DNA from: a virus
Taxonomy: Duplodnaviria > Heunggongvirae > Uroviricota > Caudoviricetes
IMG/VR virus record: IMGVR_UViG_3300023202_000102
Span: 130,700 to 193,802 of that record
Length of the DNA stretch: 63,103 bases
Direction: 5' to 3' (one strand)
The translations under genes were made by a program, and so were the position numbers. Of the stretch, positions 16,002-63,103 are shown in pieces. Numbering within the stretch: the stretch's first letter is position 1; each line of letters starts with the position of its first letter. The notes beneath the pieces were generated by a model, which had not been told where the DNA came from, ran no database searches, and saw only the letters and a list, made by a program, of their open reading frames with translations.

Positions 16002-16403
16002 ATGTTCAAAGTTGTTGAGGCTTTGAGTAATGACCCAGTTAGATTCCCAGTAAAACCTGGAGCGAAGCTTACCCCAGGACATGTTGTAAGCCTAGTAGAG
16101 TACGAGGGTCATCTCGTTCTAGATATGTGTGATGGCTACAGACCCTTTGGATTGATGGCTAGCCGTTGCCATGGTGGTAACGAACTAGATATTACCAAAA
16201 GGATAGGTGCTTGGCCCCAGAGAATGGTAGTCAACCTTGACAAATTTGATAGGTCTAGCGAGGTTCGTTCTGGCAATTCTTTGTATTGCAATAGGCGGGG
16301 GACTCTAAGTACGAGAAAGCCATTTGAAGGGGCTCTGCCGTTGGCGAAGGTGATTTCTCCTGCTGATGAAGAAAAGAAGTACATGTCGATTCTCTGGCTG
16401 TAG
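16002..16403 (+). CDS. Head decoration-like protein (paralogue 2, short form)
   Basis: Aligns by eye with 15287 (PG.V, DG..PFG, LYCNRRGTLS). Both proteins end in 'WL'. Confidence 0.5.
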   Translation: MFKVVEALSNDPVRFPVKPGAKLTPGHVVSLVEYEGHLVLDMCDGYRPFGLMASRCHGGNELDITKRIGAWPQRMVVNLDKFDRSSEVRSGNSLYCNRRGTLSTRKPFEGALPLAKVISPADEEKKYMSILWL

Positions 16404-16470
16404 CTAACAAGGCATAACCAGCCATATCAATAGGTTTTTTGCATAGCCCTAAAACGCACAGGTGTACCCA

Positions 16471-16800
16471 ATGATTGATGAGGTTTGGAAGGAATTTTTC
16501 ACTGATAGGCAGACTGCACGAGTTATGAACAGCTCTGAAGTCTGGCGTAACTATTCACAGGCCGAGATGGCCAGAGATGAGCTTCGTCAGAAGCGTGCAG
16601 CAGAAGCAAAGGTAGATGAGGAGAATCATCTACTGGATTCCCTTGAGGCATTCCGCCAAAAGGTTGCCGCTGATCCTGCGCTGAAGGCTGAGCTGAAGAA
16701 AGCTGCCGAAACATTGAAGCAGCACCCAGAGTTGAGGGACAGTGTTGACCCTAACTTTTTGAACGGCTTAGAGCTGCTTGATCTTGATAGCGAGGACTAA
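16471..16800 (+). CDS. Small helical hypothetical protein
   Basis: Motifs 'DEVWKEF', 'SEVWRNY', KRAA. Abuts the next gene. Confidence 0.55.
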   Translation: MIDEVWKEFFTDRQTARVMNSSEVWRNYSQAEMARDELRQKRAAEAKVDEENHLLDSLEAFRQKVAADPALKAELKKAAETLKQHPELRDSVDPNFLNGLELLDLDSED

Positions 16801-18468
16801 ATGAGTATTGCCAAGTACAACAAGAACTTACATGCATCTGAAGTCTTTCGTGAGCTGGAACGACAAGCAGCAAAGAAGGGCTTCTTTAATCCAACAGAGG
16901 AGGAGCAAGTAACACTTGCCGCCCAAACTGTAGCGGAGAAGAAGGTTGCAATTGCAAGCGATGATCTTCAGGAAACCGAGGATCTGGTACTTGACGTTGC
17001 TATGCTAGCTACTGCTCTTCGTGACCGTGGCCTTACCAAGCAAGCAGATGAGATTGAGAATAATCTTGTGATGTTCAAGCAGGCAGAGAGTGCTTTGTAC
17101 AATGTTACTGAGGAAACCAATAAGGACTTCATTGACTTTGCGCATCGCGAAGGAGACTTCCAGGTAGTACCTGGTGACTATGGTGCGGTTGAGACTGTTG
17201 AGTCTGCAGCCGAAAAGATACTCGCAGTAGTAAGGAAAACCCCCACGGGAAAACTCCCTAAGGAAGCATCATTGGCCGGATTGGCTTCCTTAATCAAGGA
17301 GGCTGAATTGCCAGCGGCCAGTACTACTGGGGCCGGAAGCGGAAACGTTGAAACGCTCAAGGTAGATTATGATACTGTTAAGAAGTATTTGGATGAGCTT
17401 GCCAGACTATTTGTTATGGCAGGAGATGGAAAACTCACCTTCTCAATTCAAGATCCTCTTCATGGTAAGGGACATGCATCAGCTCTTTTCAACATGCTAA
17501 CCAATAATGGATATCAACCCCTTAACACTTATGGTGTTATGGCTAAGTCTCTTTTTGCTGGTGGTAATGAAAGTAAAAATACAATTGCCGCTAATATTAG
17601 AGCCAGAGGCAATGACTACCTTAGAAGTATATTGTCTGGACGTTATGTAATTGCCTCTAGAGAGGATGAGCTTTTAAAGATGGCAGACCCAAGAGCAACA
17701 TTTGCTCCTCATCTTATACAGCAAGATACAACACAGCAACAGGCAGCTCAAAGTGAGATGGCCAAGATTGAGCAACAGGCAGACGTAACCGCACAGAAAA
17801 TATGGAACGATTACGAAGCTGCAAAATCAGCCGCAATAGATGCTGTTAACAAAGCAAATACACAACTAGCCAGGTTGCAAGCGGATGCAAATCAAATTAA
17901 GCAACATCTTAGTACACTAAGCGATAGACCATTGCGAACAGCTCAAGATTACAGAGCTTTTTCCGCAGAGATTGCTCGCACTATTCCTCAGCTTCGTCAG
18001 AGAGCGGCGTGGCCTGTAAGAATTTTGAATGGTTTTGGGAAGCTTAATGAAGCAGCAGAGTTCAAAACAAATACGGATTCTCTTGATCAGGCAAACCGTC
18101 GTCTATCAGCAAAAGCTGAAGTGGCAGCTAAAGCAGCAGAAGATGACAAGCTTGATGAGGGTCGTGTTAGAGCAACTCTTGGTAGGCTCAAGTCTATTGT
18201 AAAGCAGCTTGAGGATGGCGTTAAGAACTACGGCATGAAGAATGTCCAGGGAACTATTGATGATGTTAACACATTCATCTCTGAGATTCAGAAGCGTTAC
18301 GGTTCTGGTAGCATTAGCTATCTTCTCGAAGGTTTGAAAAACTTTGGTGATTATAAAGACAAGGATGGTAATCCAAGTTATCAAGCACTGGACAATGATA
18401 CTATGGCTCTTCTTGAGTCTGTAAAGAAAGATATCGCTGCAGCCAAGAAGAAGGCTGAGGAGAAGTAA
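16801..18468 (+). CDS. Helical internal head / ejection-like protein
   Basis: RBS GAGG. LRDRG hairpin, AH module, several K-x-A motifs, coiled coils. Confidence 0.55.
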   Translation: MSIAKYNKNLHASEVFRELERQAAKKGFFNPTEEEQVTLAAQTVAEKKVAIASDDLQETEDLVLDVAMLATALRDRGLTKQADEIENNLVMFKQAESALYNVTEETNKDFIDFAHREGDFQVVPGDYGAVETVESAAEKILAVVRKTPTGKLPKEASLAGLASLIKEAELPAASTTGAGSGNVETLKVDYDTVKKYLDELARLFVMAGDGKLTFSIQDPLHGKGHASALFNMLTNNGYQPLNTYGVMAKSLFAGGNESKNTIAANIRARGNDYLRSILSGRYVIASREDELLKMADPRATFAPHLIQQDTTQQQAAQSEMAKIEQQADVTAQKIWNDYEAAKSAAIDAVNKANTQLARLQADANQIKQHLSTLSDRPLRTAQDYRAFSAEIARTIPQLRQRAAWPVRILNGFGKLNEAAEFKTNTDSLDQANRRLSAKAEVAAKAAEDDKLDEGRVRATLGRLKSIVKQLEDGVKNYGMKNVQGTIDDVNTFISEIQKRYGSGSISYLLEGLKNFGDYKDKDGNPSYQALDNDTMALLESVKKDIAAAKKKAEEK

Positions 18469-23281: not shown

Positions 23282-23983
23282 ATGGCTTTAGAACTAGTAC
23301 AGCCAGGCATTCAGCCGCTTGGCCAATTTGATGGACATGATGATGTCTACCTTACCGTAAAGGGTGGAGAGGTTGCAACTATCGTTGGTGTTCCTCTTCG
23401 AACCTCTGGTGGAACTGACCTTCACGCAGCAGACGCTGATGACGGTTACGTTGGAACCACTCGTCCAGCAGCTACCACAAACCTCACCTCTGGTGACCGT
23501 CCACTATTCCTCGTTGACGATGGAATTAAGGGATACGGAACTCTTTTCGGTTCTGTAATCGGCGGTGTAGCTGGTCAGATTTCTGACGGACTTGGGCAGA
23601 CCAACGGTCAGCTCCTCGGACCACACACTGCAACAGCTTCTGGAAAGCTTACCCTTTGGGATAAGCCAGGAACTTATGCAGTAACACTCGACGCTGTTCA
23701 CACTGATCCACTTGTTGGTCTTGTTCCAACAAACGCTACTCTTAGCATTGGTGATGCTGTTTACGCACGAGCTGATGGAAAGCTTACACCAGATTCTGGT
23801 TCTGCTTTCGAGGCGGTAAACGTAGGATTCTTCATGAACTTTGAGCCTTACAAGGGAGGCAGCCTTGTAACGACTCCAGTTAACCTGGTGTCTGCTGCTA
23901 ACTCTCCTGTTGGACTCGGTCAGCCACAGGCTTACGCTCTGCAGCGTGCGTTGATTCACTTCAACCCACCATCTCAGGCATAA
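23282..23983 (+). CDS. Head decoration / minor capsid protein (paralogue 3, adjacent to MCP)
   Basis: Directly upstream of the MCP, with similar codon bias. Motifs 'PLFLVDD', 'ASGKLTLWDKPG', 'GDAVYARADGKLT'. Confidence 0.7.
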   Translation: MALELVQPGIQPLGQFDGHDDVYLTVKGGEVATIVGVPLRTSGGTDLHAADADDGYVGTTRPAATTNLTSGDRPLFLVDDGIKGYGTLFGSVIGGVAGQISDGLGQTNGQLLGPHTATASGKLTLWDKPGTYAVTLDAVHTDPLVGLVPTNATLSIGDAVYARADGKLTPDSGSAFEAVNVGFFMNFEPYKGGSLVTTPVNLVSAANSPVGLGQPQAYALQRALIHFNPPSQA

Positions 23984-26655: not shown

Positions 26656-27825
26656 ATGGCAACCACTCTAGACAATTTGCTAGACCAGTCGCTGGACATT
26701 GCTGGTACATGTGAACAACGAGACGATCTTGATGTCACTGAAGAATCTCTTCAGTTAGGTCAAGAGGTATCTGGTCAGCTTGGTAGTACAGCATCTATCT
26801 CAGGTATAGTTCCTAACATTGTCATTTCTGGCCTTACAGGGATGGTAGAGAACAGCGAGGGGAGGTTCTTGACAATCGAGGGTGCCTCTGATCCTGGAAA
26901 CAATGGAACCTTTTTGATAACTCAATACATCAGTCCAAGCACTGTTGTTGTAGAGAATGTTTTTGGTTTTGGTCCTGATGCAAATAATGGTTCTGTTATC
27001 TGGACAGAGAGGCAGCCATGGGTTGCACAGGATGACCATAACTACCATAGGTCTGACAGGGCTAACATCAAAGGTGTAGCTTTTGATGGGTCTGTACCAA
27101 CCTATTTCAGAGTGGACAATAAAATTGTTCCGGTTCCAGCAAATCTCGCAAATATTGCCGGTAAAACAACAGATGCAAAAGCACTTGTTGATAACCTGAA
27201 GTTTCAAACTCTTTCAGTATCTCCTGGAGATACGTTTATCACACTAACTTCAGTTGGAGATCTTAAGCACGCTGATGCTGTAGACACTACGGGCGTTCCA
27301 ATTTGGGACGGATATGATGCTGGAAATATCGGAGGTACTTTTGTAGCGATTCTAGATGACGATGGCTATGCAACAGAATTGACAGTTGCTCAAGATCAGC
27401 TTGGTGGAGCTATGCAGGGTTGGAGAATTATCGGCAGAACACGAGCCGGTGCATCAACATCTCCAAACTCTGTTGAAGTTGAGTTTAGGGCGGTTGAGCT
27501 TGGGGCTGAACTATCTACATCTGTACCTTATACTTGGGAATCTTCCCAACCATCAGAGATAGATTCAATCATAGGTTACAGAACCGGTATAGATGATTTA
27601 GACGAGAATGCTCTAAGAAAATTACTATTGTTTGGGGTAGTTTATGGCGGACAGTCTACCGGAGGAGGATCTGGACCTAGCGTTAATTTGCCATTACCTA
27701 CAGAGTATGGACAGTTCTTTTTCTCGCAAGATGGGGTTGAGTTCATTCCAGCAGTACCTGTAGTGAACGATGAAGGATTGATAATGGTAGATGAGAACGG
27801 CAAAGTCGTTGTGGTTGGTGTATAA
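26656..27825 (+). CDS. Putative virion structural protein (fibre base / adaptor)
   Basis: Acidic and beta-rich; 'LTIEGASDPGNNGTFLIT' module; two DGY motifs. Confidence 0.55.
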   Translation: MATTLDNLLDQSLDIAGTCEQRDDLDVTEESLQLGQEVSGQLGSTASISGIVPNIVISGLTGMVENSEGRFLTIEGASDPGNNGTFLITQYISPSTVVVENVFGFGPDANNGSVIWTERQPWVAQDDHNYHRSDRANIKGVAFDGSVPTYFRVDNKIVPVPANLANIAGKTTDAKALVDNLKFQTLSVSPGDTFITLTSVGDLKHADAVDTTGVPIWDGYDAGNIGGTFVAILDDDGYATELTVAQDQLGGAMQGWRIIGRTRAGASTSPNSVEVEFRAVELGAELSTSVPYTWESSQPSEIDSIIGYRTGIDDLDENALRKLLLFGVVYGGQSTGGGSGPSVNLPLPTEYGQFFFSQDGVEFIPAVPVVNDEGLIMVDENGKVVVVGV

Positions 27826-30800
27826 TGGTAAATGCTTTTCATGGTAGACAAACAGTAGATCAGGGTATTCACGGATTGGCTGCGTTTGAATATGCAGACG
27901 AAGCCGCCCGTCTTGCTGCAGGACCATTTGAAACATACGATAGAAATAAAGTTGCAAGACAGCTTGATGATGATTCTTTCTGGATTCTAGTAGATGAAAC
28001 GGGACCAACATGGCAGAGTATTGGTACGGCAGCATCCCTCATTGATAGAATCAGTGTCATGCCTGGGGTCATTTCTGGAGGAATTCTTAGCGTTAATGGT
28101 GGAGATCCTGCAACCTTTGATATCTCTTCCGGCATTGGTTATATCGTAGATTTTTGGACAGACCCACTAAACCCAGTTGTTTCAGAGGTTACACTAGGAG
28201 GTACGGGTCTAGCTGTAACAAACCTTGCGACACAATCAGCTACATATATTCTTGTTGATGATACTAGCACTGTAATTCAACAAGGAATCTCACCAACCGC
28301 AGAAGAAAGAAGAAGGTACCTATATCTTGGACAGCTTGGTCACTCTAACAACACAACAATCGGTACGGCAGTTCCAACTCCTTCATATGCGTATTCCATA
28401 CGGCATGATTATGAAGACCTGACCGAAGCTATTGGAACCATTAACAATGGTGTTTTTGTAATTCCAAACGGCACCAACTTAAACATTAATAGATCTGATG
28501 GTTATTTGTTTTTCAGAGACTCTAATGTTGACAATAACGCTAGAGATCCAAACAACGTTGCCATAACAAGCCAAGCCCCATTAACATTTAGACTAAGAAC
28601 ACAAACTGGTAATGGTTCCACTAGTACGATTTTAGATGTTGGTAACTATGACAGTGCAGGAATAGTTACCGCGATAGCTGGTACTCAATATCAAAACTTT
28701 AGAGTTTACCAAATTCCATCAGGTAATACAGTTATACAATATGGTCAAAATCTATACCCCAACATTGATGATGCTGTTGATGCGCTTGGTACAGAGTCGT
28801 TTAGCGTACTATCTAGCCTGGTAGAGTCAGCAGCTTTAATTGGTGTTATTACCGCTTCATCTACAGCTGTAGATCTTTCCAACACCAGCCAGGCAAGGTT
28901 CTTTTCTGTTTCAAAATTTGGTGAGCTTACCTCTTCTGCTGGAGGTTCAGCAGTAACATCACACAGTCTTCTTACGGGTCTTGGTAATGATGATCATACA
29001 CAATACCTTCTTGTGGATGGTTCTAGAGCCATGTCTGGTGATTTAGACATGGACGGTTATGATATTGTTTCCGTTGGATTGGTAGATGGCGTTGATGTTT
29101 CCCTTCATGCTTCAAGGCACGAAACCGGAGGAGCAGATCCTTTAGATGGTTATCAGATAGATTTGGTTTATTCTCCAATCTCCTACTTGCCACCAATAAA
29201 TGATATCATTGGTGAACATATTGCTAGAATAGATGAGGCACTCACTGGGGCGATAGGAACAGGAGATGTTAATGGCCCAGCATCTTCTCTTGATAACGCA
29301 ATAGCTAGGTTTGATGGTAGTACGGGTAAGCTAATCCAAAACTCTGGTGTTACTCTTGAAGACAATGGTAACATTCTGTTTTCTGATACGCTATCAGCTG
29401 CTTTACTAAGACAGCTTGATACTACGGCTGCTTTTGCATCTAACTTCCAAATTTACGCACAGTCATCTACTGGAGGCGGCTCTGTTGGTGGTGATCTTAT
29501 TCTGGCATCAGGATCTGGTACATCAGCAAGTGGAGATATCGAACTAACAGTTGGATCTTCCGTAGCCTTAGCTCTCAATGATAATACGGTTTCAACCTTA
29601 TCCGCTGCTGGTGATGGTTATCTTGTAGCTTACAATCAGTCAGAAAACGCTGTTGAATATATTGATCCGATTACTGTTGGAGTAACTGATCATGGAGGTC
29701 TTACTGGCCTTGGTGATGATGATCATACACAATACTTACTGGTAAGTGGTACAAGGCCTATGTCTGGAAACCTAGACATGGGCTCCAATGATATTGTTTC
29801 CGTTGGCCTGGTGGATGGAGTTGATGTATCCGCTCATTCCACAAGACACGAGAACGGTGGAGCTGATGAAATCAATGTTGGTGGCTTGTCGGGACTTCTT
29901 GCAGACCCTCAGACACCTCTTGCACACGCATCCACGCATGAAAGTGGAGGTACCGATGCCCTTGATGGTTATCAAATAGATCTTGGGTACTCTCCGGTCA
30001 ACTACCTAGCACCTACCAATGATATTATTGGCGAGCACATTGCCAGAATTGATGAGGCCCTTGCAGGGGCCGTAAGTACGGGAGATGTTAACGGACCAGC
30101 ATCTAGCACAGATAATGCCATCACCAGATTTGACGGTGTAACGGGCAAGTTAATTCAAAACTCTTTGGTAACAATATCTGATACTGGTTCAATCACCCTT
30201 GATGCAACCGTTACATCTCCAATTATATCTCAAGCAGATGATGCCACCCCAGCTACAGCTGGTGATAGGTTGACAGTCCAGGCTCAGAATATGACCGGTG
30301 GAACCACAGTCGGTGGTGAACTTTGGCTCACATCAGGCTCTGGAACTACAGATGGTGATGTTGTTATCTTGACCGGTGGCAATCTTGCAATGCTGTTTGA
30401 TGAGGAAACGGCCACATCGTTCGCGGCAGCTGAAGACGGATACGTAGTTACATACAATGCTGTAAACAATGCGGTTGAATACTCTCCCCCTACTGAAACT
30501 AAGAGAATTGTTACAGTTGATTTTGCTTTGACAGAAGATGCTTTCAATTTCTCTCCATACTTTTTCACTTGGAGATCTACCGGATCTGATTCAACTACAG
30601 GCAAAAGATCAACCTCTGCATCCGGCATGTCAACGCCAAATGCTTGTAACCCTTATATAGTTCCATTTGACGCAACAATTACCAGAGCAATTTTAGTAGT
30701 TCGTGGGGTGGGTGTGCAGAATGGTTCTGTTACTTATCCAGTATCTTACAGGGCAGATCTTCTTGATGTAGGGTTTACTGGAAATACAAAGATTGCAGAT

Positions 30801-30998
30801 GTTGACTTCTCAATCTCTAACTCATTTACGGTTGGAACATTCTCCGTAGGTAACACTAACTTTAGAGGTGGAATGAGCATGAACCTTGATGTTGATGAAG
30901 GGGATACGCTGGGTTTGCAGTTTAACCACGGAGTTGGTGCATCAATCGCAGGCCAAACAAGAATGGCATTTGTTACCTTCGTACTAGAGGAAAGATAA
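27825..30998 (+). CDS. Fibre protein 1 (DDDHTQY / HxxxH repeats)
   Basis: Repeats 'H..LTGLG.DDHTQYLLV.G.R.MSG.LDM', 'VDGVDVS.H..RHE.GG' and 'GDV.GPASS.DNAI.RFDG.TGKLIQNS'. Confidence 0.75.
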   Translation: MVNAFHGRQTVDQGIHGLAAFEYADEAARLAAGPFETYDRNKVARQLDDDSFWILVDETGPTWQSIGTAASLIDRISVMPGVISGGILSVNGGDPATFDISSGIGYIVDFWTDPLNPVVSEVTLGGTGLAVTNLATQSATYILVDDTSTVIQQGISPTAEERRRYLYLGQLGHSNNTTIGTAVPTPSYAYSIRHDYEDLTEAIGTINNGVFVIPNGTNLNINRSDGYLFFRDSNVDNNARDPNNVAITSQAPLTFRLRTQTGNGSTSTILDVGNYDSAGIVTAIAGTQYQNFRVYQIPSGNTVIQYGQNLYPNIDDAVDALGTESFSVLSSLVESAALIGVITASSTAVDLSNTSQARFFSVSKFGELTSSAGGSAVTSHSLLTGLGNDDHTQYLLVDGSRAMSGDLDMDGYDIVSVGLVDGVDVSLHASRHETGGADPLDGYQIDLVYSPISYLPPINDIIGEHIARIDEALTGAIGTGDVNGPASSLDNAIARFDGSTGKLIQNSGVTLEDNGNILFSDTLSAALLRQLDTTAAFASNFQIYAQSSTGGGSVGGDLILASGSGTSASGDIELTVGSSVALALNDNTVSTLSAAGDGYLVAYNQSENAVEYIDPITVGVTDHGGLTGLGDDDHTQYLLVSGTRPMSGNLDMGSNDIVSVGLVDGVDVSAHSTRHENGGADEINVGGLSGLLADPQTPLAHASTHESGGTDALDGYQIDLGYSPVNYLAPTNDIIGEHIARIDEALAGAVSTGDVNGPASSTDNAITRFDGVTGKLIQNSLVTISDTGSITLDATVTSPIISQADDATPATAGDRLTVQAQNMTGGTTVGGELWLTSGSGTTDGDVVILTGGNLAMLFDEETATSFAAAEDGYVVTYNAVNNAVEYSPPTETKRIVTVDFALTEDAFNFSPYFFTWRSTGSDSTTGKRSTSASGMSTPNACNPYIVPFDATITRAILVVRGVGVQNGSVTYPVSYRADLLDVGFTGNTKIADVDFSISNSFTVGTFSVGNTNFRGGMSMNLDVDEGDTLGLQFNHGVGASIAGQTRMAFVTFVLEER

Positions 30999-45451: not shown

Positions 45452-45452
45452 T

Positions 45453-46226: not shown

Positions 46227-46261
46227 ATCAATATTCAAGTATATTAGTATAGGGGATAATA

Positions 46262-49436: not shown

Positions 49437-51059
49437 ATGCCTAGCTGTAAACCACAAGTCAGTATTCGTACTTTTGACCGTGCACTCTATGGACTCAAAT
49501 CAGTGGGCTTCCATGGGGATGGCTATTCCGTATCTATGGAATGGTACAAATCTTATGTAGAACCAATCAATTATGATTTGGTTTACAATATCTATTGGTC
49601 TAACCTGAAGAGTGATGTTTTCACAGAGGGTGTAAAGTTTGTAGTTCCTGGTGATCAGCTTCAGGCCACATTTATCAATCTCTTCAAAGCCGGAGAGACT
49701 TATAATTTTGCAGTGCGAGCAGCGGCTCATGAACCAGGTACTTTAGATTTTGATAGTCTTCCAGAATCACCAGAGAATGGCAAAATGTATCCGCAGGCCG
49801 CTTTGCGTGAAGATATTACTGCAACTGACCTTATCATCCCATTAGATGATGTTTCCATGTTTCCACCAATGGGTATTGTACTGATTGGTGCAGAACCAAT
49901 CTCGTATTCAGCGATTGATATTGTAGATAACAATCTTGTTCTTTTCAGTCAAGACCAGCGTGGTCTGTACGGCTATGATGCTCGATTACACACTACAGAT
50001 GGTTATGATGGATACCATCAGTTTGACGATCCGTTTGTGAATCTTTGGAAGGGATTTGAAGATGAAAATGGGGTTACAGGAGTTGATACTAATAAGTTTG
50101 AGCACCAGTATCCGAGAACTAACGCAGACGGCTACAGAGGTCAGCAGGATATCATTACAGGATCTAAAAACCTAGATGTTGTTGATGATATCAATGACGG
50201 GTTCCCTTCTTGGGATCACGCTGGTTGGGACAGAAACCCAGTTACAGATTATTTAGCAGGTAGGTGTATAGGCACTTACTTTGGTGGTGAGTTTGGATGC
50301 GCAGATGGTTACGATTCTACAGGGCCAGAACGTGGACTTTCTATTGGTGACCACATTAACATGAGAGAGGAGTACCTTCTTGAGATTACTGGTGAGCCTG
50401 TAACATTGGTACGTCGCATGTGGGAGGGTAAGAATTCCAAACACTATAGCCCAACCCGAGAGAACACTGCTTATCGTGGACTGGACAATCATGGAACAGG
50501 GTTTGTTAGCGGGTACGACCAGTATTTCAATACCAGGCGTTCAGATGGAAAGATTTTAGTTCGCTTCGGGCCAACCAAAGAGGACTTTAAGCGCGAAGAC
50601 TCTGGTATCGAAAATGAGTTCATTCCTAACTGTTGGACTTTGGTAACACCATCTGTGCAAGATGGTGACTTCATCATTCGATACAATGATGATGGCTCAG
50701 AGGAGTGGAGGTACGAGATTATTGATGTTGATCGTAATAGAACATTTTCTGAGATTGCTGGTGGCTCTAATGGTGCTCAAAAGTTTACAGCCGTGCGTGT
50801 TCGTAAGACTGATCCAATTTATCAGTGGAGAGCTATTAGAGATACATCCATGTTCCCATCAGAGGTACTTACTCATTTTGGCTCTGTTTCTGGGCCTGGA
50901 GGAATTCCTCTACATATGCACAGAATCGTTATTAACGAAAACATCGTTTCTTTGCAACAAATCAATCAAACCACCTCTATTGAGAGGGGGCATAATCATG
51001 TCGTAGAAAACGGAGTTGTTTTACCAGCTCTTGGGCATACCCACACATTAATATTATGA
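49437..51059 (+). CDS. Putative neck / head-closure protein with FN3-like N-terminus and His-rich C-terminus
   Basis: 'YNIYWS...YNFAVRA' (FN3-like); 'TGEPV.LVRR...WTLVTP.VQDGDFII...RYEI..V' (closure-like); terminal HMH/GHNH/GHTH; five DGY motifs. Confidence 0.55.
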   Translation: MPSCKPQVSIRTFDRALYGLKSVGFHGDGYSVSMEWYKSYVEPINYDLVYNIYWSNLKSDVFTEGVKFVVPGDQLQATFINLFKAGETYNFAVRAAAHEPGTLDFDSLPESPENGKMYPQAALREDITATDLIIPLDDVSMFPPMGIVLIGAEPISYSAIDIVDNNLVLFSQDQRGLYGYDARLHTTDGYDGYHQFDDPFVNLWKGFEDENGVTGVDTNKFEHQYPRTNADGYRGQQDIITGSKNLDVVDDINDGFPSWDHAGWDRNPVTDYLAGRCIGTYFGGEFGCADGYDSTGPERGLSIGDHINMREEYLLEITGEPVTLVRRMWEGKNSKHYSPTRENTAYRGLDNHGTGFVSGYDQYFNTRRSDGKILVRFGPTKEDFKREDSGIENEFIPNCWTLVTPSVQDGDFIIRYNDDGSEEWRYEIIDVDRNRTFSEIAGGSNGAQKFTAVRVRKTDPIYQWRAIRDTSMFPSEVLTHFGSVSGPGGIPLHMHRIVINENIVSLQQINQTTSIERGHNHVVENGVVLPALGHTHTLIL

Positions 51060-51905: not shown

Positions 51906-53558
51906 ATGGTAAGGACTAGGTATACTGGCACTGGACGAGCCCGTGAGGGCGGACTCGCCGCAACCCACAGACAGGACTTTGAAGCTCACCACACAGGTGG
52001 AGATTGGCGTCATGGGGCTTTGGACATTGATATGGATCCGCCAATCACCGAAGGTGATGGTATCTATCAGGGAGATACTGTTCAAGAAACTCTTGAAGCT
52101 ATGGCAAATGTATTCTTGACAGGAGGTCAGGGGTTCATTGCTATTGGTGATGGTTATGGAAATTGCTCTCAAGATATTGCTCCAGCTTTTGAAGGAGCCT
52201 TTACCAATGCTCGTCTCGTAAATGGCGGTGTGATTCTGGTTAAGGCTGGAACATATTGTTTGCAGAACACGGTAACTGTCCCAACAGGTATTACAATTCT
52301 GGGCGAGCCCGGTGCATCGGTCATCATTGGTGAGACAGCAGAGGCTCCGCTGTTTGAGTTCCAAACAACAACTACCATTAATGATGTTGGTGATGGTGGC
52401 TTTACAATGACAGAGTCTCAGGACAAGAACCGCATTGTTGATATGGTTTTTTATGATGACCTGAACGACAATTCAGCGGGTGGACCATCCAGTCTTCAGA
52501 CAGTTCCGTTTGTTAGGTGCGAGCGTGGCTCTGATTTGACGATTGATAATTGCCAGTTCATTGGAAAAGTAGAGACTGGACCAAATGCTGTAACACACAG
52601 AGTAGTTGGATACACTGGTGCAGCTTCACTTAACGGAACAACCTTACAGTTTTTGAATTCATTTGCTGACGGTGTAAAGTCATTAGTGGAATTTGATGCA
52701 ACTCTTGGAGCGCCCGATAGGTTAGTCATTGAAAACAATAGGTTTAGAACTTTTGGTGATGGAATCAATGCAGACTCTGAAAGTACCTATGCTGTTTCAT
52801 TCACTAATTGTAACTGTACAATTGCAAACAACCATCATGTAGGCGTTAACTCAACTTATCAAGCACATGGATTTGCTTTCATCAAAGACTTCGCTGTTGC
52901 CGATTCTAGTACTTACATATCAATTACTGGAACAACTGGTGGTGTAGACTCTACGTTATCAGATACAAACACGCTCATTTTTGATGATAGAACAGTTAAG
53001 AATGAAATTCAAACTGTTGCCTTAAATTCTTGGGGCCCTCCAACCTTAACAACTTCACATCCATTTTCTTTGGCATTGGCTGGTGATATTCGGGCGAATG
53101 GTGATGCAGAAGTATCTGGGGGAGATACAACTATTGCTCGTGGTGTTGTTCACCACGCATTTGCACACAGGTACATGAATGACTCTACTGCTGTAGATAA
53201 GCAGTACACCCTTGATCCTAGATATGAAGCTCACGCAGTTGGAACGGCTGGTGCTGGATTCGGACTATTACACATAGTTGTTTCTGCGGCAGCTGCAACT
53301 CCGGTTACACTTACAATCGACACAACGGCCGGAGCCCTGCCTCTTGGTGGAATATTTGAGATTGTAGTTTCAAATATTAATGGTGCGGACATTACAATGT
53401 CTTGGGATTCTGAGTTTGGTTTCCAAAGCGCTGGAGACGATCAGTTCGGAACATCTAATCTAATAGCAGAGACTGTTGTAAGGTGGACCGGAACTGTAAT
53501 TTCTCCAGTTAGCTCTATGCCAAGAATTCTCATGGACAGAAAGGATTATCTTCCATAA
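51906..53558 (+). CDS. Tailspike-like protein with pectate-lyase-type beta-helix
   Basis: 'GGVILVKAGTY.L...VTVP.GITILGE' N-cap and repeats such as 'IDNCQF', 'IENNRF', 'IANNH'. Confidence 0.7.
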   Translation: MVRTRYTGTGRAREGGLAATHRQDFEAHHTGGDWRHGALDIDMDPPITEGDGIYQGDTVQETLEAMANVFLTGGQGFIAIGDGYGNCSQDIAPAFEGAFTNARLVNGGVILVKAGTYCLQNTVTVPTGITILGEPGASVIIGETAEAPLFEFQTTTTINDVGDGGFTMTESQDKNRIVDMVFYDDLNDNSAGGPSSLQTVPFVRCERGSDLTIDNCQFIGKVETGPNAVTHRVVGYTGAASLNGTTLQFLNSFADGVKSLVEFDATLGAPDRLVIENNRFRTFGDGINADSESTYAVSFTNCNCTIANNHHVGVNSTYQAHGFAFIKDFAVADSSTYISITGTTGGVDSTLSDTNTLIFDDRTVKNEIQTVALNSWGPPTLTTSHPFSLALAGDIRANGDAEVSGGDTTIARGVVHHAFAHRYMNDSTAVDKQYTLDPRYEAHAVGTAGAGFGLLHIVVSAAAATPVTLTIDTTAGALPLGGIFEIVVSNINGADITMSWDSEFGFQSAGDDQFGTSNLIAETVVRWTGTVISPVSSMPRILMDRKDYLP

Positions 53559-55638: not shown

Positions 55639-58600
55639 ATGACAGTATTTCCAACTGCAATTGATGATGATCGATCAATCATAAGAATAGACGATAATCT
55701 TTCGGAAATGGGTGGTACATCCATCAATCAAATCCGAGAGGCTATCTTTGCTATTGAAAGAACTCTGGGCCTGAACCTGCAGGGCTCAATGGGGAGCCTT
55801 GCAGAACGCCTGAATGTATCTATCAATTCAGATGGAACTCTAAGAACAGATGCCCTTCAAGCTGTCGGTTTGGCAACACTGCCAATCCATGACAACCAAG
55901 TGGCTGCGACTGCGGGGATCCAGGAATCTAAGTTAGACCTGGATTTCAGCACGTCCGATCTTGCAACTCAACTTGCTGCTCTCGATGCTTTGGTAAACTC
56001 CACAGCAGATCTTGCAACGCTAACCAATGCAGACTTGCTCATTCATATTGCTGGCGGTACGCTGCTGAATGACAACTCTACCCAGGCACGTCACGTTGCT
56101 TCTCAGATCGATATTAACAATGTTCCCCTTGATACCAGAGACGGTACCTACATCTGGGGTGGTCTTAAGGACAAGAACGGTAATCTCCGTTCTGCAACTC
56201 AGGTAGCAGAGGCATTACTTCAGATCAATGATGATTTCGTTGCTCACCAAAACGCCATCTCAGAAGCTCATGTTGCTACGGCCATCTCTGTAGATACAAC
56301 TAACTTCCTTGAGATTCCTAAAGAACTTACAGATGTTCAGGCTGTCTTTGATTACTTTGATGATCAAGAGACTCTATCTACAGGGCTTGACCGAGCTACC
56401 TTACATACTAATGGCATCATCCGAGATGTGCGTGCAGAAGATCCACGAGTGGCTGTAGATGGATACAACACCAGCATCGTACCAGAAACGAAGGTCGCGG
56501 CATACTTGGCTGAACCAAGCCAGACAGCACCAAATGACAACGCATCCAATGGTGATGATGTTATTCAGTTTTTCCCAGAAGACAACTCTAAGTTTACCTT
56601 TGACGCTCAGTTCTCCCAAGTAAAGGTTGGAGACACCCTCCGTATTAACTATGGAATGGGAATTGAGGCTGTTTTCCCAATTAAAAGTATTCGCTTCAAG
56701 CCTGGAACTGAGTGGGCTGTTCGAATTAGTACTTACAACCTCAAGAACCTTGATGGTTACAACGGCACAGACGGATACGATGGGTATGCCCGCATCGATA
56801 AGTCCAGATTCGACAACAACACTTGGGGTGTGTTTGCAGCAGCTGGTGCTGTGCCTAACACCAACCCAGGTGGGGCATGTGATATTCAACCACAAAGCGT
56901 TATCATCGGAAATCCAAAAGGAGCTACAGCGCTAGGTATAGGTTTCGACCCTGGTAAGTTGGATATTGATCATTACAAACTATATCTTAGACTGTACCCA
57001 TCTGGTGATCCCGAGGTGTTCACAGACCTTCCATTTATTGATGTGACAGGTAATGCTGGAACCACCCCAGGTGCGTACAATATCGACAGAGTTGTAGAGG
57101 CTACAAACGCAGAGTTCCGTAAGGCAGGGTATAATTACAGATTCATTGCATTCAACTACAAGGGTGAGTTCGGCCTCATGCTTGCAGACGCCTACAACAA
57201 CGCTTCTTTCTCCATCATTGCTGGTCAAATCAATGGTACATCCATTGAGGAGGCTTCCTTTACTGAAAACGCAATTGGAGATGCCACAGATGGTTACGAC
57301 GGCTTAGGATTGGGCGCAGGAAGGGCTGGATTTGCAACACCAGTCTTACCATCAGGATCTGACTTTACAGACGCTCAGGCGGCAGCAAGTCTATCAACAC
57401 TGGTGATTCCTCCGGTAACTGGCAGAGATTCTATTATTGACGGCGCTAGACAGGATATTTTAGGAACGCCATCTCTTACCCAAGGTGATGGGTATTGGAT
57501 TGGTACCGTTACAGATGTAACAACAAACATCATTGAAAACACCAAGACTGTAACATATACTGTTCCTTTAGATCTTTCTGCTCAGGAACTTGCTGTTGGA
57601 AAAACTATTGTTATACAACCAACCGATCCTACAAATGCAGACATTGCGGGATATGGTCGTTTTATCATCGGTAATGTTACCTATGATGATAATTGTGGTA
57701 CGGTAAATCAAACCATTATTTCTGTTATCAATGGTATTCATGGAACCGGAGATCCATTAGGTACAACTCTACCTCTTAACACTGAGGTTAAGTTGTACTT
57801 CTCAGAGGACTCTGTTGGGTTTAACAATACCAATGTAGTTGGTGATACCGCAGATTACTTTAGGTATCATGAGATTTTTGCAACTCCAACAAGAGAGACG
57901 TTTGCTGTTGAGCGAGCGCGCATGCCAAAACAGACTGAGACCGGTATTCTTCTTGGTACGCTAACGGAGAATTGGAGAATTAGAAAAGTTTCTCCAAAAC
58001 TTAAAGGGGTTAGAACAGGTTCTGATTTTCGTAGCTTTGTAAGGTTTGTTGTTACTGACTATGATCCTGCAACGGGAAGGTATGACGGTTACATTGGAGA
58101 GCCAGATGGAGATTCAATTCTTAACCCAGGACCAATTGTTAGTGGTAAGAAAGATCGTACGGTACGGTTTTATGATGGAACCTACGTTAGTCATATAGAT
58201 ATAGAGTTTAGAGAATTTTCTACCACTCCTGGTGTTAACATTATGCCAGATACCTCTCCAAGGTATGTGGATATTGAGGTTTTTGATACTTTACAAAGAC
58301 ATGATGAATTCTTTGTTCTTGCTGGTGTTAGTCACAATGTTTTGGACTTTCAATCCATTACCGATCTTCGTGAGTTTGGAACACTATCTGAAGATAACTT
58401 TACAGATTCGGCAATCAAATTTATCCAAGCTGGAGAGCGTTATCTTCATGCTAATGGAGTTGTACGAGGATTTGAATACGAAGGTACGGCAACGAACTCT
58501 GAGGCAGTGCTTGGGTTTACTGGAGGTATAGCGCTGGTTAATGGAGCATTTGTTGCAACAGATTCCTTTGAGGTAAAACTTCCAGAGGTTAAATCCAGCT

Positions 58601-60789
58601 CTTCTGATGAGGTGAATTTTCTCATCTGTGTTACCGAAGGAGGACAGCTTCAGGCGGTCGTTCAGGAGACCGGAACAGGGGCGCAATTCTATGCCGTAGA
58701 TACTGGCTACTATGTTGAGACGTTATCGTTCAGAGATGTTGTTAACAAACACAAAAAACTTACCATTGTAGCTAAGGTAAATGCCACAATTGCAGATCAA
58801 GATGGGGGTGGAACCACCTACTCATTAAACTCTGTGGTAGATGCAAGGCGTTTTGTTTACAACGAAAGTGTTCGTGGACCATGGTCATTGACTGTAAGTC
58901 CAGAAGAGGATGGGTATGTCGCTACATTCAGATCAGCTGAGGCGGTAACGTGCTGGGTTAATGAATACGATATTTCTGAGGTTAAAATAGTTTATTTAGA
59001 AACAAATGAATGTATTGATCTATCAGGAATGAATAACAAGGTTAGATTCTATGGAGGAAATGCTCTTATAAATTCAGATGTTGGTGTGATGATTGGAAAC
59101 AATGTGCACCTAGATGGCATAGACTTTATCTACAATCCAAATCAAGCAGAAATTGTAGATAACAATCTGCATCTAAACACTGACTTTGGGTGTGTATACT
59201 CTGAGGATTACGAAAACATGAAGGTCACAAATTGTACTTTCATTTCAACCGTAGAATGCCCACCAGCAATTCACTTCAAACCAACTTCTTCAAATGACTT
59301 GGTAGCAATTGAAGTTTCTAACAACAGGTTCAATCTTTCTAGTAATGTTCAGAACTGCGCAATTGCGTTTACAAAGCGTGGTTCAGTAACTGATGAGCTT
59401 AGTCTGAATTCAGTTATTGTATCTGGAAACACATGCGAAGGCTCACAGGCAATTGTTATTTCGGTTGATGCAAATGTATTTGATGGTGATTCAATTGACT
59501 CAGATCCGTTTGTTACCAATAATGTATCGATAACTCGAAACCAGTGTGGTGCTATTGGTTTCCTTACGTCTGAAGCAGGCCAGAATCATACTGCGCTTCA
59601 GATTTCTGAGAATGACGCTCTCATCATCACAACAATGGATGGTGGCGGAAACCAGATTGACATTGACGATTTTGATATTCCTGACGAGACGGGAGCTGTA
59701 ACTATTGATAGAAATAAGTGCTACAGTATTGGGGTTACTATAGACAACACCTCTGCCTCTTCATACATCAACATCACGAACAACAACATTGTTTCCGGAA
59801 GCAGTTCTGTATTCCCTGGCGGGTACAACAATACCTATGGAAGTATTGGTATTTATGTTTGCTCTCCATACATTGGAACGGTTTCTGGGGCGCAGGTTTC
59901 CAATGTAAAGATTATTGGAAACTCCATATACCAGATACCAGAGTTGGGCAGAACTTATGATGGTGGTATTGAGCTTCACAAAGCTGGTATAATTGCCAAC
60001 AACTCAATCGGTGCGCTTGCAAGCGATGCCGTTGGTATCAGACTTGTTGGTGTCGATACCAATGATGACAATGACTCAAGAAGAGAAATTTCTGTGCATA
60101 ACAATGCTATCAATAGAGGAAGCGTGGCAATTGATGCATTTATCTCAATTGATGCAGTTGTTGACGATCCGACCTTCTACAAGATTGTAGATAATTATTT
60201 CGATTCGAGGTACATCGATCTATTGAATACGGATGATGATACGATAAAAATCAGTAATAATCCCAAGTCATTGATTGATAGAAATATAAATCATTTGCAA
60301 ACTACAAACTATCATCTTACGCCATATTTTGGTCCAAGAAAAACATCATCTTCTGGCGCTATGGTTTATAATAGATTTTTTGATCAGCCTCAAGTTGACA
60401 ATGTTAGAGGGGTCGTATATAATGCAAGTGGTTTAACAGTTGAACTTGATACTGGTGGAACTTCTGATTTAATTGGCGTCATACCACTTAATACGGTTTT
60501 GCCACCAGGAGCAAAGCTAGTTAAAATAAGTCAAGGAGGTCTTGGTCTTGACATTATTGCCGGAGAACTTTCTATAAGTGTTTTTGGTACTTTATCTGGA
60601 TTGATTGATTCTGATACACAAGATTTGTCTGTTTTTGCAGGGGGCACTTTAGAGTTAGACGCACCAAGCACCACACGCAGTGTAGAGGCAGAGCAATATA
60701 GACTTGTTATTGTATTAGATGATATCAAACCTGATGCGGGAGGCGGTTCATGGGTTTTTACTTTTTCAACAATTACTTACACATGGTAA
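55639..60789 (+). CDS. Large virion structural protein (1716 aa) with C-terminal beta-helix
   Basis: N-terminal 'FPTAIDD...INQIREAIFAIERTLG', 'NGVVRGF' module, beta-helix repeats ('VSNNRF', 'VSGNTC', 'IIGNSI', 'IANNSI'); eight DGY motifs. Confidence 0.7.
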   Translation: MTVFPTAIDDDRSIIRIDDNLSEMGGTSINQIREAIFAIERTLGLNLQGSMGSLAERLNVSINSDGTLRTDALQAVGLATLPIHDNQVAATAGIQESKLDLDFSTSDLATQLAALDALVNSTADLATLTNADLLIHIAGGTLLNDNSTQARHVASQIDINNVPLDTRDGTYIWGGLKDKNGNLRSATQVAEALLQINDDFVAHQNAISEAHVATAISVDTTNFLEIPKELTDVQAVFDYFDDQETLSTGLDRATLHTNGIIRDVRAEDPRVAVDGYNTSIVPETKVAAYLAEPSQTAPNDNASNGDDVIQFFPEDNSKFTFDAQFSQVKVGDTLRINYGMGIEAVFPIKSIRFKPGTEWAVRISTYNLKNLDGYNGTDGYDGYARIDKSRFDNNTWGVFAAAGAVPNTNPGGACDIQPQSVIIGNPKGATALGIGFDPGKLDIDHYKLYLRLYPSGDPEVFTDLPFIDVTGNAGTTPGAYNIDRVVEATNAEFRKAGYNYRFIAFNYKGEFGLMLADAYNNASFSIIAGQINGTSIEEASFTENAIGDATDGYDGLGLGAGRAGFATPVLPSGSDFTDAQAAASLSTLVIPPVTGRDSIIDGARQDILGTPSLTQGDGYWIGTVTDVTTNIIENTKTVTYTVPLDLSAQELAVGKTIVIQPTDPTNADIAGYGRFIIGNVTYDDNCGTVNQTIISVINGIHGTGDPLGTTLPLNTEVKLYFSEDSVGFNNTNVVGDTADYFRYHEIFATPTRETFAVERARMPKQTETGILLGTLTENWRIRKVSPKLKGVRTGSDFRSFVRFVVTDYDPATGRYDGYIGEPDGDSILNPGPIVSGKKDRTVRFYDGTYVSHIDIEFREFSTTPGVNIMPDTSPRYVDIEVFDTLQRHDEFFVLAGVSHNVLDFQSITDLREFGTLSEDNFTDSAIKFIQAGERYLHANGVVRGFEYEGTATNSEAVLGFTGGIALVNGAFVATDSFEVKLPEVKSSSSDEVNFLICVTEGGQLQAVVQETGTGAQFYAVDTGYYVETLSFRDVVNKHKKLTIVAKVNATIADQDGGGTTYSLNSVVDARRFVYNESVRGPWSLTVSPEEDGYVATFRSAEAVTCWVNEYDISEVKIVYLETNECIDLSGMNNKVRFYGGNALINSDVGVMIGNNVHLDGIDFIYNPNQAEIVDNNLHLNTDFGCVYSEDYENMKVTNCTFISTVECPPAIHFKPTSSNDLVAIEVSNNRFNLSSNVQNCAIAFTKRGSVTDELSLNSVIVSGNTCEGSQAIVISVDANVFDGDSIDSDPFVTNNVSITRNQCGAIGFLTSEAGQNHTALQISENDALIITTMDGGGNQIDIDDFDIPDETGAVTIDRNKCYSIGVTIDNTSASSYINITNNNIVSGSSSVFPGGYNNTYGSIGIYVCSPYIGTVSGAQVSNVKIIGNSIYQIPELGRTYDGGIELHKAGIIANNSIGALASDAVGIRLVGVDTNDDNDSRREISVHNNAINRGSVAIDAFISIDAVVDDPTFYKIVDNYFDSRYIDLLNTDDDTIKISNNPKSLIDRNINHLQTTNYHLTPYFGPRKTSSSGAMVYNRFFDQPQVDNVRGVVYNASGLTVELDTGGTSDLIGVIPLNTVLPPGAKLVKISQGGLGLDIIAGELSISVFGTLSGLIDSDTQDLSVFAGGTLELDAPSTTRSVEAEQYRLVIVLDDIKPDAGGGSWVFTFSTITYTW

Positions 60790-61780: not shown

Positions 61781-62656
61781 ATGAAGACTTCTCATGTCGA
61801 GTTTCAGAATGAATATTCCAGCACAAATGAAATGGAATATGAATCAGCTAAGTGCTCAAAGTGCAATAGAGTGCTTCCACTTGATCGTGAGCATTTTCAC
61901 GTACGCACGAATGAACCATTGCAATTCAGAAAGGATTGCAAGGAATGCGTTGCAAAGCGCGGTGCTTCTTACCGGAAGGTGAACCGAGACAAAGTCTTGG
62001 AATCTAAACGCAGATATCGTGAAAAGAACCTCGACAAAGTGCGTGAGTATACGCGCGAATATAATGCCCGACCAGAAGTGAAAGAGCGCATACGTGAGTA
62101 CCGTAAGTCTGATGAGCAGCGTGCAAAGCAGTCGGTAAGGAACAAGCGTTACAGTTCTAAACCATCTATTAAGGCGAAGAGGGTTCAGAAGAGAGTTGAG
62201 CAATACCACTCGGACATAGAAGCCTCTAGAAAATCTCAGTGCGAATACAAGAGGCGAGAAGAAGTTAAACAGCGAACCAGAGAGTATTACCACAGAACTA
62301 AAACGCCAGAAAAACGTCTGAGGGCTTCTGTCAAAGCATCTATCATCTACCACCTTAAATGCCAAGGCAAATCAAAGAACGATTCTTTGATAAGGCATCT
62401 AGGATATACTCTTGAAGAGCTGAAAGTTCACATAGAATCTTTGTGGGAACCATGGATGAGTTGGGATAATTGGGGGCTATATCGGGTCGATACCTGGGAT
62501 GATAATGATCCATCCACATGGACCTGGCACATAGATCATATTCAGAGGCACCATACATTTGGGTACGACTCAATGAAGCACCCTGATTTTAAGCGGTGTT
62601 GGGCATTGTCAAATCTAAGACCTCTTTCGGCTAAAGAGAACGTAATCCGGCAATAA
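61781..62656 (+). mobile_element. HNH-type homing endonuclease with Zn-finger and basic helical repeats
   Basis: CSKC...CKEC, R/K/Y/E-rich repeats, 'LGYTLEELK.HIE..W...MSWDNWG...WHIDHI...CWALSNLRPL...N'. Start uncertain. Confidence 0.8.
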
Positions 62657-62664
62657 TTTAGCAT
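62653..62664 (+). promoter_or_regulatory. Putative late promoter element
   Basis: ATAA-ttta-GCAT, 6 nt, ATG 62671; no SD. Confidence 0.55.
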
Positions 62665-62670
62665 CCTGGC

Positions 62671-63103
62671 ATGACGCCAGGAACACTAAATTTTCATAGG
62701 ACGGATCTGTATCAAATTCATCATGTGGTACAGAATACCCTAATGAGTTATCCTAAGGAGCTTGTAATTGATATCCTTAGGAAAGAATTTAGTAAGGATT
62801 CATATTATGCGTACCGCCAAGATGAGTGGGGGTACCCTAAAGTTGTAGATCTAACCGATGTTCCCCTAGAGGCCGGTTATGATGACGATAGAACCACCCG
62901 AATCTTTATCGGGGAAGCGTTCAGGCAGGATGCAATTCTGTACCCAGCGCTGATGGTTCGTATGACCTCAGCGAAGTCAGTGCCCATTTCGATGTCCCGT
63001 AACAAGGAGACCATCGAATATGAGAAGCAGTTAGTAATTGATGGGTATGGAAACACAAAGGAGTTTTTCATACCTCGGTACATCGACCTGGCTGGGGCAT
63101 GGG
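62671..63103 (+). CDS. Putative tail-completion/terminator-like protein, 3'-partial (absent from the ORF track)
   Basis: Open frame MTPGTLNFHRTDLYQ...IFIGEAFRQDAILYPALMVR...VIDGYGN... to the window end; 'YPALMV' resembles tail-completion proteins. Confidence 0.5.
   Translation, partial: MTPGTLNFHRTDLYQIHHVVQNTLMSYPKELVIDILRKEFSKDSYYAYRQDEWGYPKVVDLTDVPLEAGYDDDRTTRIFIGEAFRQDAILYPALMVRMTSAKSVPISMSRNKETIEYEKQLVIDGYGNTKEFFIPRYIDLAGAW

Follow-up and report, generated by a model that had tools for sequence, protein, structure and literature searches.

In this huge phage and its relatives, fibres, tail-periphery proteins and decoration-like proteins carry the tripeptide Asp-Gly-Tyr (DGY) about ten times as often as expected by chance, and the enrichment is clade-wide among these huge phages and limited to peripheral virion proteins. 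Our literature search found no paper describing the DGY pattern. From the behaviour of the motif in these sequences we suggest, with a probability of roughly 0.4, that DGY may be a short tag recognised in trans, most plausibly by an enzyme that acts on the tyrosine hydroxyl.

Within the window, that is, the whole 63,103-nt stretch analysed here, 32 in-frame copies of DGY are distributed over 11 ORFs (1, 1, 2, 6, 4, 2, 1, 5, 1, 8 and 1 in window order), reproducing ORF by ORF the count of about 32 made in the initial annotation. Its rough expectation of about 4 also agrees with the values obtained from composition (4.0) and from within-protein shuffles (3.66 +/- 1.92, maximum 12 in 5000 shuffles), and a first-order Markov model gave 6.5. 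DGY ranked first in enrichment among all tripeptides of the window (Poisson p ~1e-18). The excess stands after composition correction, and the DGF, DGW and NGY controls proposed for it are flat; window counts were DGF 2, DGW 0, NGY 1, EGY 0, SGY 3, YGD 2 and GDY 3, and none of DSY, DAY, DGF, DGW, NGY, EGY, YGD and GDY rose above expectation. Proteins from 23282 onward carry 31 copies versus 2.1 expected, the head and internal proteins of the window carry 1 versus 1.1, and the enzymes none, as first described. The enriched region had been drawn from 16002; since the site at 16131 belongs to the chance-level head module, the enriched stretch starts at 23282, and the claim holds from there on.

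It is barely conceivable that composition, dipeptide bias, repeated domains or a DNA-level signal produces the excess artificially. Asp and Gly are indeed abundant in tail proteins, and about one third of the DGY sites lie in paralogous or overlapping contexts, including repeats in fibre 1 (6 sites, 4 contexts) and in the fibres at 2-15.3 kb of the source phage record (12 related sites). However, both null models fall well short of the observed count, and when paralogues are collapsed the 52 sites of the genome still leave 27 independent contexts, several-fold over expectation, so that composition, dipeptide bias and paralogous repeats account for a minor part of the excess only. At the DNA level, the pattern GAYGGNTAY occurs genome-wide 52 times in frame 0, against 0 in frame 1, 6 in frame 2 and 9 in antisense, and the codons of DGY sites match background usage, with GAT dominant. 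This in-frame restriction and background codon choice rule out a DNA-level motif and bear out the earlier conclusion that selection acts on the peptide. The variable region of a diversity-generating retroelement, whose variation would be restricted to a single C-terminal region and to AAY-derived codons, was likewise rejected, since DGY is spread across more than 15 proteins with background codons and GAT dominant.

The tandem copies reported previously were all recovered, namely DGYNGTDGYDGY at 56752-56787 (codons GAT GGT TAC / GAC GGA TAC / GAT GGG TAT), TTDGYDGY and LDGYGNRVDGY, as were the replacements in fibre 1 (LDGYQID versus IDGDQID, and MDGYDI versus MGSNDI). In these paralogous repeats the tag alone makes the difference (DGY versus DGD, DGY versus GSN), and an outgroup has GGY. 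No extended consensus was found around DGY in 100 instances; the flanks showed a weak Asp excess (2.7-fold) five residues after the Tyr and no fixed pattern. A calcium-binding loop of the DxDxDG type was discarded because the flanks hold no acidic residues at fixed spacings.

All DGY-bearing genes of the window lie on the plus strand. The most upstream, a 145-aa head-module ORF (15966..16403), has one DGY at chance level and is probably outside the phenomenon. A 233-aa Gly-rich protein (23282..23983) has one copy, and two in its orthologue of the relative G001; its gene immediately precedes the major capsid gene, the place occupied in Bacillus phage G by the capsid decoration gene gp26. The fibres are preceded by a 389-aa protein of no known family (26656..27825) with two copies, whose G001 orthologue has four, mostly elsewhere in the sequence. 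Fibre 1 itself (1057 aa; 27825..30998) matches tail-fibre PHROGs over residues 80-392, and its H-x-x-GG-x-D repeats are also found in Haloferax tailed virus 1 gp42; its six copies represent the four independent contexts mentioned above. Further downstream, a 385-aa protein of no known family (38841..39998) bears four copies, a 111-aa protein (43945..44280) two copies seven residues apart (one to three in its orthologues of G001, L023 and L024), and a 299-aa conserved tail-module protein (46262..47161) one copy, kept in G001. P0001 (540 aa; 49437..51059) combines an FN3-like N-terminus with a C-terminus containing invariant HxH pairs, and a fold search returned weak matches to phage neck proteins and FN3; all five of its DGY sites occupy columns that are invariant or nearly so in a 391-member family. 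One copy is present in a 550-aa protein (51906..53558) with a sub-threshold pectate-lyase-like beta-helix match, eight in P0145 (1716 aa; 55639..60789), including the tandem array, and one, kept in G001, in a protein start cut by the record end (62671..63103). A fold search with the P0145 segment gave no match, the protein atlas was uninformative for proteins 47213 and 38841, and no homologues of P0001 or P0145 were found in the cultured-phage collection.

The same distribution was seen along the source phage record (G000, ~45% complete), where the fibres at 2-15.3 kb hold 14 DGY versus 1.3 expected and the part from 153.9 kb to the end 31 versus 2.7, with 7 versus 5.7 in between. In G001 (~33% complete), 49 copies were counted versus 5.6 expected; its tube initiator, 1738-aa protein and Baseplate_J block contribute 2 versus 0.6, and its two terminal fibre-like proteins 19 versus 0.65. 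DGY is the top-ranked tripeptide in G001, L023, L024, L027 and L029, with up to 10 sites in a single protein, and all sampled relatives with this tail module share the enrichment. A general property of phage fibres is excluded, as T4 fibres gp34-37 have no DGY, and two unrelated huge phages show 1 versus 3.2 in the fibre region (LR745206) and no excess (LR745208). The T4 half with head and baseplate had 10 versus 2.9 and the half with gp34-37 had 1 versus 2.3; in Tunturi_5 and Rctr197k the DNA pattern was two- to three-fold in excess, diffusely and with no cluster. In Bacillus phage G, gp420-431 show a local DGY excess that is weaker.

Comparison of orthologues, suggested in the initial annotation as a check on gain and loss, revealed turnover of sites with upkeep of their number. 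Between G000 and G001, ~48% of aligned DGY sites are kept, versus 10.8% for any tripeptide, and gains are seen on both sides. Among 120 relatives of the P0145 family, DGY occurs 623 times versus 46 expected, whereas DGF (48 versus 54) and NGY (49 versus 55) do not exceed expectation; DGY is found there in 60 rare columns, and its gain rate per unit expectation (1.29 versus a median of 0.39) is the first of 3220 tripeptides. Some of these gains involve three substitutions (e.g., PAT to DGY). Furthermore, some of the DGY columns of two protein families are near-invariant within gappy, variable loops, many DGY sites equal core structural residues in invariance, and loss of the Asp often leaves the Tyr in place.

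Twelve DGY sites were read as secondary structure in two predicted models, which place DGY at turns leading into beta-strands: at 11 of the 12 sites the models assign Asp and Gly to coil or an isolated bridge, and Tyr occupies coil, a short bridge or a strand start, also at 11 of 12; in the one exception a hairpin comes first and Tyr is already within the strand, close to its beginning. Compared with other tyrosines, those of DGY have flanks that are slightly more hydrophobic rather than more hydrophilic, an observation that goes against a tag.

Taken together, the need for all three residues in order, selection at the peptide level, restriction to the periphery, conservation in the clade and recurrent gain support a functional mark, and Asn-Gly, the classic best former of the type I' turn, is flat here, which argues against turn propensity alone. 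In the mechanism that we propose, the tag would mark junctions between loop and strand in fibres, in large tail-side proteins and in a decoration-like protein, and would be read in trans, most plausibly by an enzyme modifying the tyrosine hydroxyl, with Tyr as putative acceptor and O-glycosylation as the leading candidate modification. The other roles named in the initial annotation, namely phosphorylation, cross-linking, isoaspartate chemistry and docking of an accessory protein, are conjectural. A more specific version, in which DGY would be the sequon of a virion-coating system whose phage or host cytoplasmic enzymes modify the Tyr of every exposed DGY, with a sugar or another group covering fibres, tail periphery and capsid decoration, seems to us rather unlikely.

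A modifying enzyme was also looked for, as proposed earlier. A GT2 glycosyltransferase at 638-1513 (minus strand) of G000 closes the DGY-rich fibre operon, and all four homologues fetched sit in tail or fibre modules, next to proteins with above-expectation DGY. However, no member of the GT2 family was detected in the G001 fragment, in phage G or in the 250-460 kb contigs of the clade, and no glycosyltransferase of any kind was found in the tail region of the G001 fragment. The initial reading of a functional mark is partly supported, through the pattern of the motif, and the GT2, missing in most tag-bearing relatives, is only a candidate, with no universal reader identified; given the partial completeness of G000 and G001, gene absence in them is weak evidence either way. 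The genes upstream of the GT2 homologues have no recognisable kinship to each other, and the GT2 profile matched solved structures only over a generic GT-A N-terminus (5hea GalT1, E = 5e-5). PIMT, a Ser/Thr/Tyr kinase (Pkinase) and GT1 were not found in the available part of G000. Among other genes considered, a weak Sulfotransfer_1 gene adjoins the P0001 homologue in L024 and was set aside, having no homologue in G000 or G001; the class-V aminotransferase of the tail module is a NifS/DndA-like cysteine desulfurase, and the module's patatin and papain-like genes show no connection to DGY.

The main rival of a tag is a self-acting DGY, in which a compact Asp-Gly turn presents Tyr where a beta-strand begins; it would serve either to staple hairpins robustly in long-lived extracellular proteins or as an adhesive or ligand patch (carboxylate plus phenol), multivalent for host surface sugars or cations. 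We consider this rival quite possible, if short of probable. The predicted setting of the sites is what such a turn would require, flanks resemble ordinary beta-protein sequence, and the lack of a universal reader in our search is in its favour. Moreover, invariance like that of core residues and a Tyr that outlasts the Asp fit a structural tyrosine and count against a tag. Asn-Gly is deamidation-prone, and its avoidance could explain why NGY is not used. On the other hand, other phage fibres manage without DGY, enrichment is lacking for DGF and DGW, which would pack similarly, and the interchange of turn formers and aromatics expected of a structural turn was seen neither in the window nor among the 120 relatives. 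A staple also fits poorly with the strict residue order (YGD and GDY flat) and with tandem DGYDGY, and a fold-specific element would not usually be gained at 60 columns irrespective of position. A docking or assembly role, in which a phage protein (for instance a chaperone of the fibres, a decoration protein or a fibre-subunit joint) would recognise DGY non-covalently, is distinctly improbable. In its favour, the motif is confined to peripheral proteins that need to be joined together, it is kept in the weakly neck-like protein and in large tail-side proteins, and trigger factor, DnaJ and Hsp20 are all encoded by the phage itself. However, no candidate binder was identified, and a defined geometry is hard to reconcile with as many as 10 sites in one protein and with 60 gain positions scattered over a single family.

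If DGY is a tag for modification or recognition, it would represent a new short code by which virus particles are decorated, common to a widespread and uncultured huge-phage clade of which metagenomes contain hundreds of family members. The tag would then make modified surface sites predictable from sequence alone and lead to the enzymes responsible, and DGY might be reused as a small protein-engineering tag; under the sequon reading, huge phages would write their surface chemistry in a three-letter code. Even if DGY is self-acting, it is unusual for one tripeptide to be selected on outer virion proteins in a clade-specific manner and independently of position, and a physical cause, for instance adhesion, stability or metal binding, is needed to explain it.

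Among known systems, the classic tyrosine corner of Greek-key beta proteins is L-x-P-G-x-Y, and turn statistics favour Asn-Gly. DGY resembles type I' turns and tyrosine corners in having Asp-Gly in a turn, Tyr at a strand start and Tyr preferred to Phe; in contrast to those universal motifs, it is confined to the peripheral proteins of a single clade. Sequon-directed glycosylation uses Asn-X-Ser/Thr, or D-(S/T)-(A/I/L/V/M/T) in the O-glycosylation of Bacteroidetes. Like these sequons, DGY is a three-residue code enriched on surface proteins and independent of the surrounding sequence, its near-miss motifs are not enriched, and its sites are gained and lost at many positions while their total is kept up. 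Unlike them, its presumed acceptor is Tyr, its substrates are virion proteins assembled in the cytoplasm, and it is a putative tag known from sequence alone. Mycobacteriophage virions are reportedly glycosylated by phage-encoded glycosyltransferases, a modification said to have been demonstrated; similarly, a phage glycosyltransferase encoded beside structural genes would here modify exposed virion proteins, whereas the mycobacteriophage system is untied to a DGY code or to Tyr, and the counterpart here is one GT2 gene without clade-wide occurrence. Tyrosine O-glycosylation occurs on S-layer proteins of Paenibacillus and Thermoanaerobacter (PMC2943079). This system employs an oligosaccharyltransferase at the membrane, and a DGY consensus was not found in the part of that source available to us; it offers a bacterial precedent for a stable sugar-tyrosine linkage on a repetitive surface array (PMC2943079).

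When 50 non-overlapping ORFs in the window were translated (20,285 aa), 32 Asp-Gly-Tyr (DGY) tripeptides were found, agreeing ORF by ORF with the initial annotation, against 4.0 expected from composition, 6.5 under a first-order Markov model and 3.66 ± 1.92 in within-protein shuffles (maximum 12 in 5000). DGY was the top-ranked tripeptide for enrichment in the window (p about 1e-18), and the near misses were flat (DGF 2, DGW 0, NGY 1, EGY 0, SGY 3, DSY 4, DAY 3, YGD 2, GDY 3); Asp preceded 32 of the 70 Gly-Tyr dipeptides. All sequence details quoted previously were present, including the tandem at 56752-56787, encoded by three different codon triplets. The proposal that selection acts on the peptide and not on the DNA was borne out, since GAYGGNTAY across the whole virus record (G000; 193.8 kb, linear, CheckV completeness about 45%), of which the window forms the terminal 63 kb, lies mainly in frame 0 (52 occurrences; 0 in frame 1, 6 in frame 2 and 9 antisense), and DGY codon choice tracks background usage. 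The 52 sites of G000 reduced to 27 contexts when paralogous or physically overlapping ones were collapsed by lenient single-linkage, still well over expectation, and 100 DGY instances from two genomes revealed no consensus beyond the three residues.

The excess was confined to particular proteins. Head and internal proteins (3-26654, minus 23282) carried 1 DGY against 1.1 expected, and the large proteins from 23282 onward 31 against 2.1; inside the tail module, enzymes and homing endonucleases lacked the motif, as had been claimed. Gene 23282 (23282-23983) directly precedes that of the major capsid protein (24085-25095; phrog_2522 match, 53.5% identity to Bacillus phage G gp27), the position of the phage G decoration gene. 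Beyond the window, 14 DGY against 1.3 came from five fibre-like ORFs in G000 (2-15.3 kb). One of these, a 1160-aa fibre-operon protein (4851-8333, minus strand), has four Laminin_G_3/ConA-like lectin domains, with the tandem DGYDLDGYELDG between domains 1 and 2. The 42,865 aa encoded between these fibres and the DGY-rich end held 7 DGY against 5.7. Fibres 2 and 3 (31000 and 33887) are tyrosine-poor and have zero DGY. Separately, fibre repeats of the form H-E-x-GG-x-D ... L-A-D-P-Q-T-P (29800-29965, 31400-31560 and 35000-35100 of the window) match tail fibre gp42 of Haloferax tailed virus 1 (PDB 9h7v, 9h5b; E = 1e-8), as well as Halorubrum phage Hardycor1 and uncultured huge phages, and this fibre module therefore spans archaeal and bacterial viruses.

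Enrichment recurred among relatives, where DGY again ranked first. In G001, a syntenic IMG/VR record of 139.6 kb sharing 70 proteins with G000 at 25-77% identity, 49 DGY were counted against 5.6 (p = 4e-29), distributed as 4 against 2.9 below 74 kb and 24 against 1.6 at 74-111 kb; the block of tube initiator, 1738-aa protein and Baseplate_J had 2 against 0.6, and the two terminal fibre-like proteins 19 against 0.65. The other clade contigs were L023 (453 kb, 20 against 1.3), L024 (265 kb, 13 against 1.2), L027 (219 kb, 16 against 1.2) and L029 (13 against 1.2). Among comparison phages, no excess was found in the T4 half with fibres gp34-37 (1 against 2.3) or in a fibre-encoding stretch of LR745206, a 635-kb phage (1 against 3.2), nor in the DNA pattern of DGY in LR745208; the T4 head and baseplate half had 10 against 2.9, scattered singly, and in Tunturi_5 and Rctr197k the excess was diffuse and no more than two- to three-fold. 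Phage G was intermediate, with 15 of 52 forward-strand hits within 28 kb over gp420-431 (14 DGY against 2.2), 6 of these 14 being supplied by a repeated DGYWYVRG module. At 316.8-347.7 kb of phage G (gp420-431), four giant proteins have in common a repeat ending N-G-R-H-T-DGYWYVRG, which may be of cell-wall-binding type; phage G homologues of the window tail proteins were not detectable.

Conservation of the motif combined fixed and mobile sites. All five DGY of protein 49437, which has 391 relatives in the database, occupy invariant or near-invariant columns among 56 relatives (44-71% identity), with tyrosine in 54 (Y190), 55 (Y233), 51 (Y30) and 50 (Y292) of the 56 sequences and phenylalanine at most once per column. 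The same family has invariant His-x-His pairs in its C-terminal 50 residues (H493/H495, H519/H521, H534/H536), together with two invariant cysteines (C277 and C288), an arrangement reminiscent of the HxH sites at T4 fibre tips that bind metal. In the 1716-aa protein at 55639, compared with 120 relatives (41-61% identity), the family total was 623 DGY against 46 (mean 5.2 per protein), with DGF (48) and NGY (49) at expectation. Four columns were near-invariant (reference Y276, Y380, Y619 and Y818), two of them in very gappy surroundings, and sixty more had DGY in 5% of sequences or fewer; per unit expectation the number of such rare columns was 1.29, first of 3220 tripeptides (median 0.39, 95th percentile 0.64). 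Some subclades made DGY from three different residues, e.g., PAT or NAT at reference position 623. Of the DGY sites that align in G000 and G001, about 48% were kept (10.8% for tripeptides generally); DGF, DGD and DGH occurred as alternatives, and new sites appeared on the G001 side. The suggested substitution of DGY within paralogous fibre repeats was likewise confirmed, the repeats differing exactly at the tag. Fibre 1 (27825) reads PLDGYQIDL where fibres 2 and 3 read EIDGDQIDI, and inside fibre 1 LDMDGYDIV is paired with LDMGSNDIV; the outgroup LR745206 reads LGGYQIT at the corresponding repeat.

AlphaFold models of protein 49437 (pLDDT 85.3) and of residues 240-860 of the 55639 protein (pLDDT 85.0) were read as secondary structure and confidence. 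Asp and Gly lay in coil or an isolated bridge at 11 of the 12 modelled sites, where Tyr was in coil, a short bridge or the first residue of a strand; the remaining site (816-818) lay just within the strand following a hairpin, and confidence at DGY sites ranged from below 50 to 94. At semi-conserved sites the replacements were often Thr, Val, Ser or Glu, which would suit exposed strand positions. Relative to the other tyrosines of these proteins, DGY had slightly more hydrophobic flanks (-0.15 against -0.33, p = 0.02), which counts against special exposure, and the loop bias of rare DGY columns was no greater than that of control tripeptides' rare columns. The 49437 protein has an FN3-like N-terminus and matched phage neck proteins weakly; the modelled 55639 segment matched no solved fold.

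The expectation that modifying enzymes would accompany the enrichment held in part: a GT2 glycosyltransferase was found in the G000 fibre operon, but GT1, PIMT and Pkinase were not found in the record (about 45% complete), and several related records, themselves incomplete, gave no match to the GT2. The GT2 gene (G000 638-1513, minus strand; PF00535, 28 bits), whose family has an invariant DDDD-YY block, comes last among the large genes of this DGY-rich operon. The family has 24 database members, and in each of the four genomic contexts retrieved the gene falls within a tail or fibre module, next to proteins with above-expectation DGY, a co-occurrence that is not independent evidence because the four contigs come from one clade. 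A short-word search of incomplete records did not find it in phage G, in the G001 fragment or on the 250-460 kb contigs that encode 49437 or 55639 homologues, and the G001 tail region showed no glycosyltransferase of any kind; given such a search and such records, GT2 is a candidate reader for G000 only, rather than one established for the whole clade.

Tail-module genes encode a patatin-like lipase, a NifS/DndA-like cysteine desulfurase, a papain-like protease and homing endonucleases. The patatin-like phospholipase and desulfurase pair (40452-42538) is kept in G001, L024 and L029; at the L023 tail-module edge, genes for an NDP-sugar epimerase/dehydratase and a GFO_IDH_MocA oxidoreductase, in place of the lipase, hint weakly at sugar chemistry. 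The papain-family cysteine protease (44639-45481) and a LAGLIDADG endonuclease (45453-46238) are both on the minus strand, and the counterpart of 44277-46238 comprises two C1 peptidases in L023 and none in G001. The G001 tail region encodes two ORFs with Cas12f1-like TNB (TnpB-type) domains, two LAGLIDADG_2 endonucleases and a protein matching Dockerin_1. In the rest of G000, Pfam matches listed included two ClpP, ribosomal protein L7/L12, IF3, trigger factor, DnaJ, peptide deformylase and Pol III alpha, and 15.4-130 kb also encodes Hsp20, Thg1, TANGO2 and a PP-loop ATPase; the translation and proteostasis genes are a set typical of huge phages.

We tentatively favor, at a probability of roughly 0.4, the reading that DGY would be a mark recognised in trans on peripheral virion proteins, which fits an ordered, strict three-residue motif with no flanking consensus, restricted to such proteins and clade-specific, with invariant anchor sites and a steady supply of new ones; sequons behave in this way. 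A structural or adhesive loop acting by itself stands close behind and is a serious possibility: many DGY sites are conserved like core residues, tyrosine outlasts aspartate, exposure of the motif is presumed, and its proposed reader is a candidate in G000 only. An explanation by turns only would predict enrichment of Asn-Gly-Tyr and Asp-Gly-Phe, and neither is enriched. Most of the weight on a trans-read mark goes to modification of the tyrosine by a glycosyltransferase, although as an overall reading this is rather doubtful; a motif serving non-covalent docking seems improbable, and a small remainder is left to other explanations.

No description of such a motif in phages was found in the literature searched. 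Tyrosine O-glycosylation is described on bacterial S-layers in PMC2943079.
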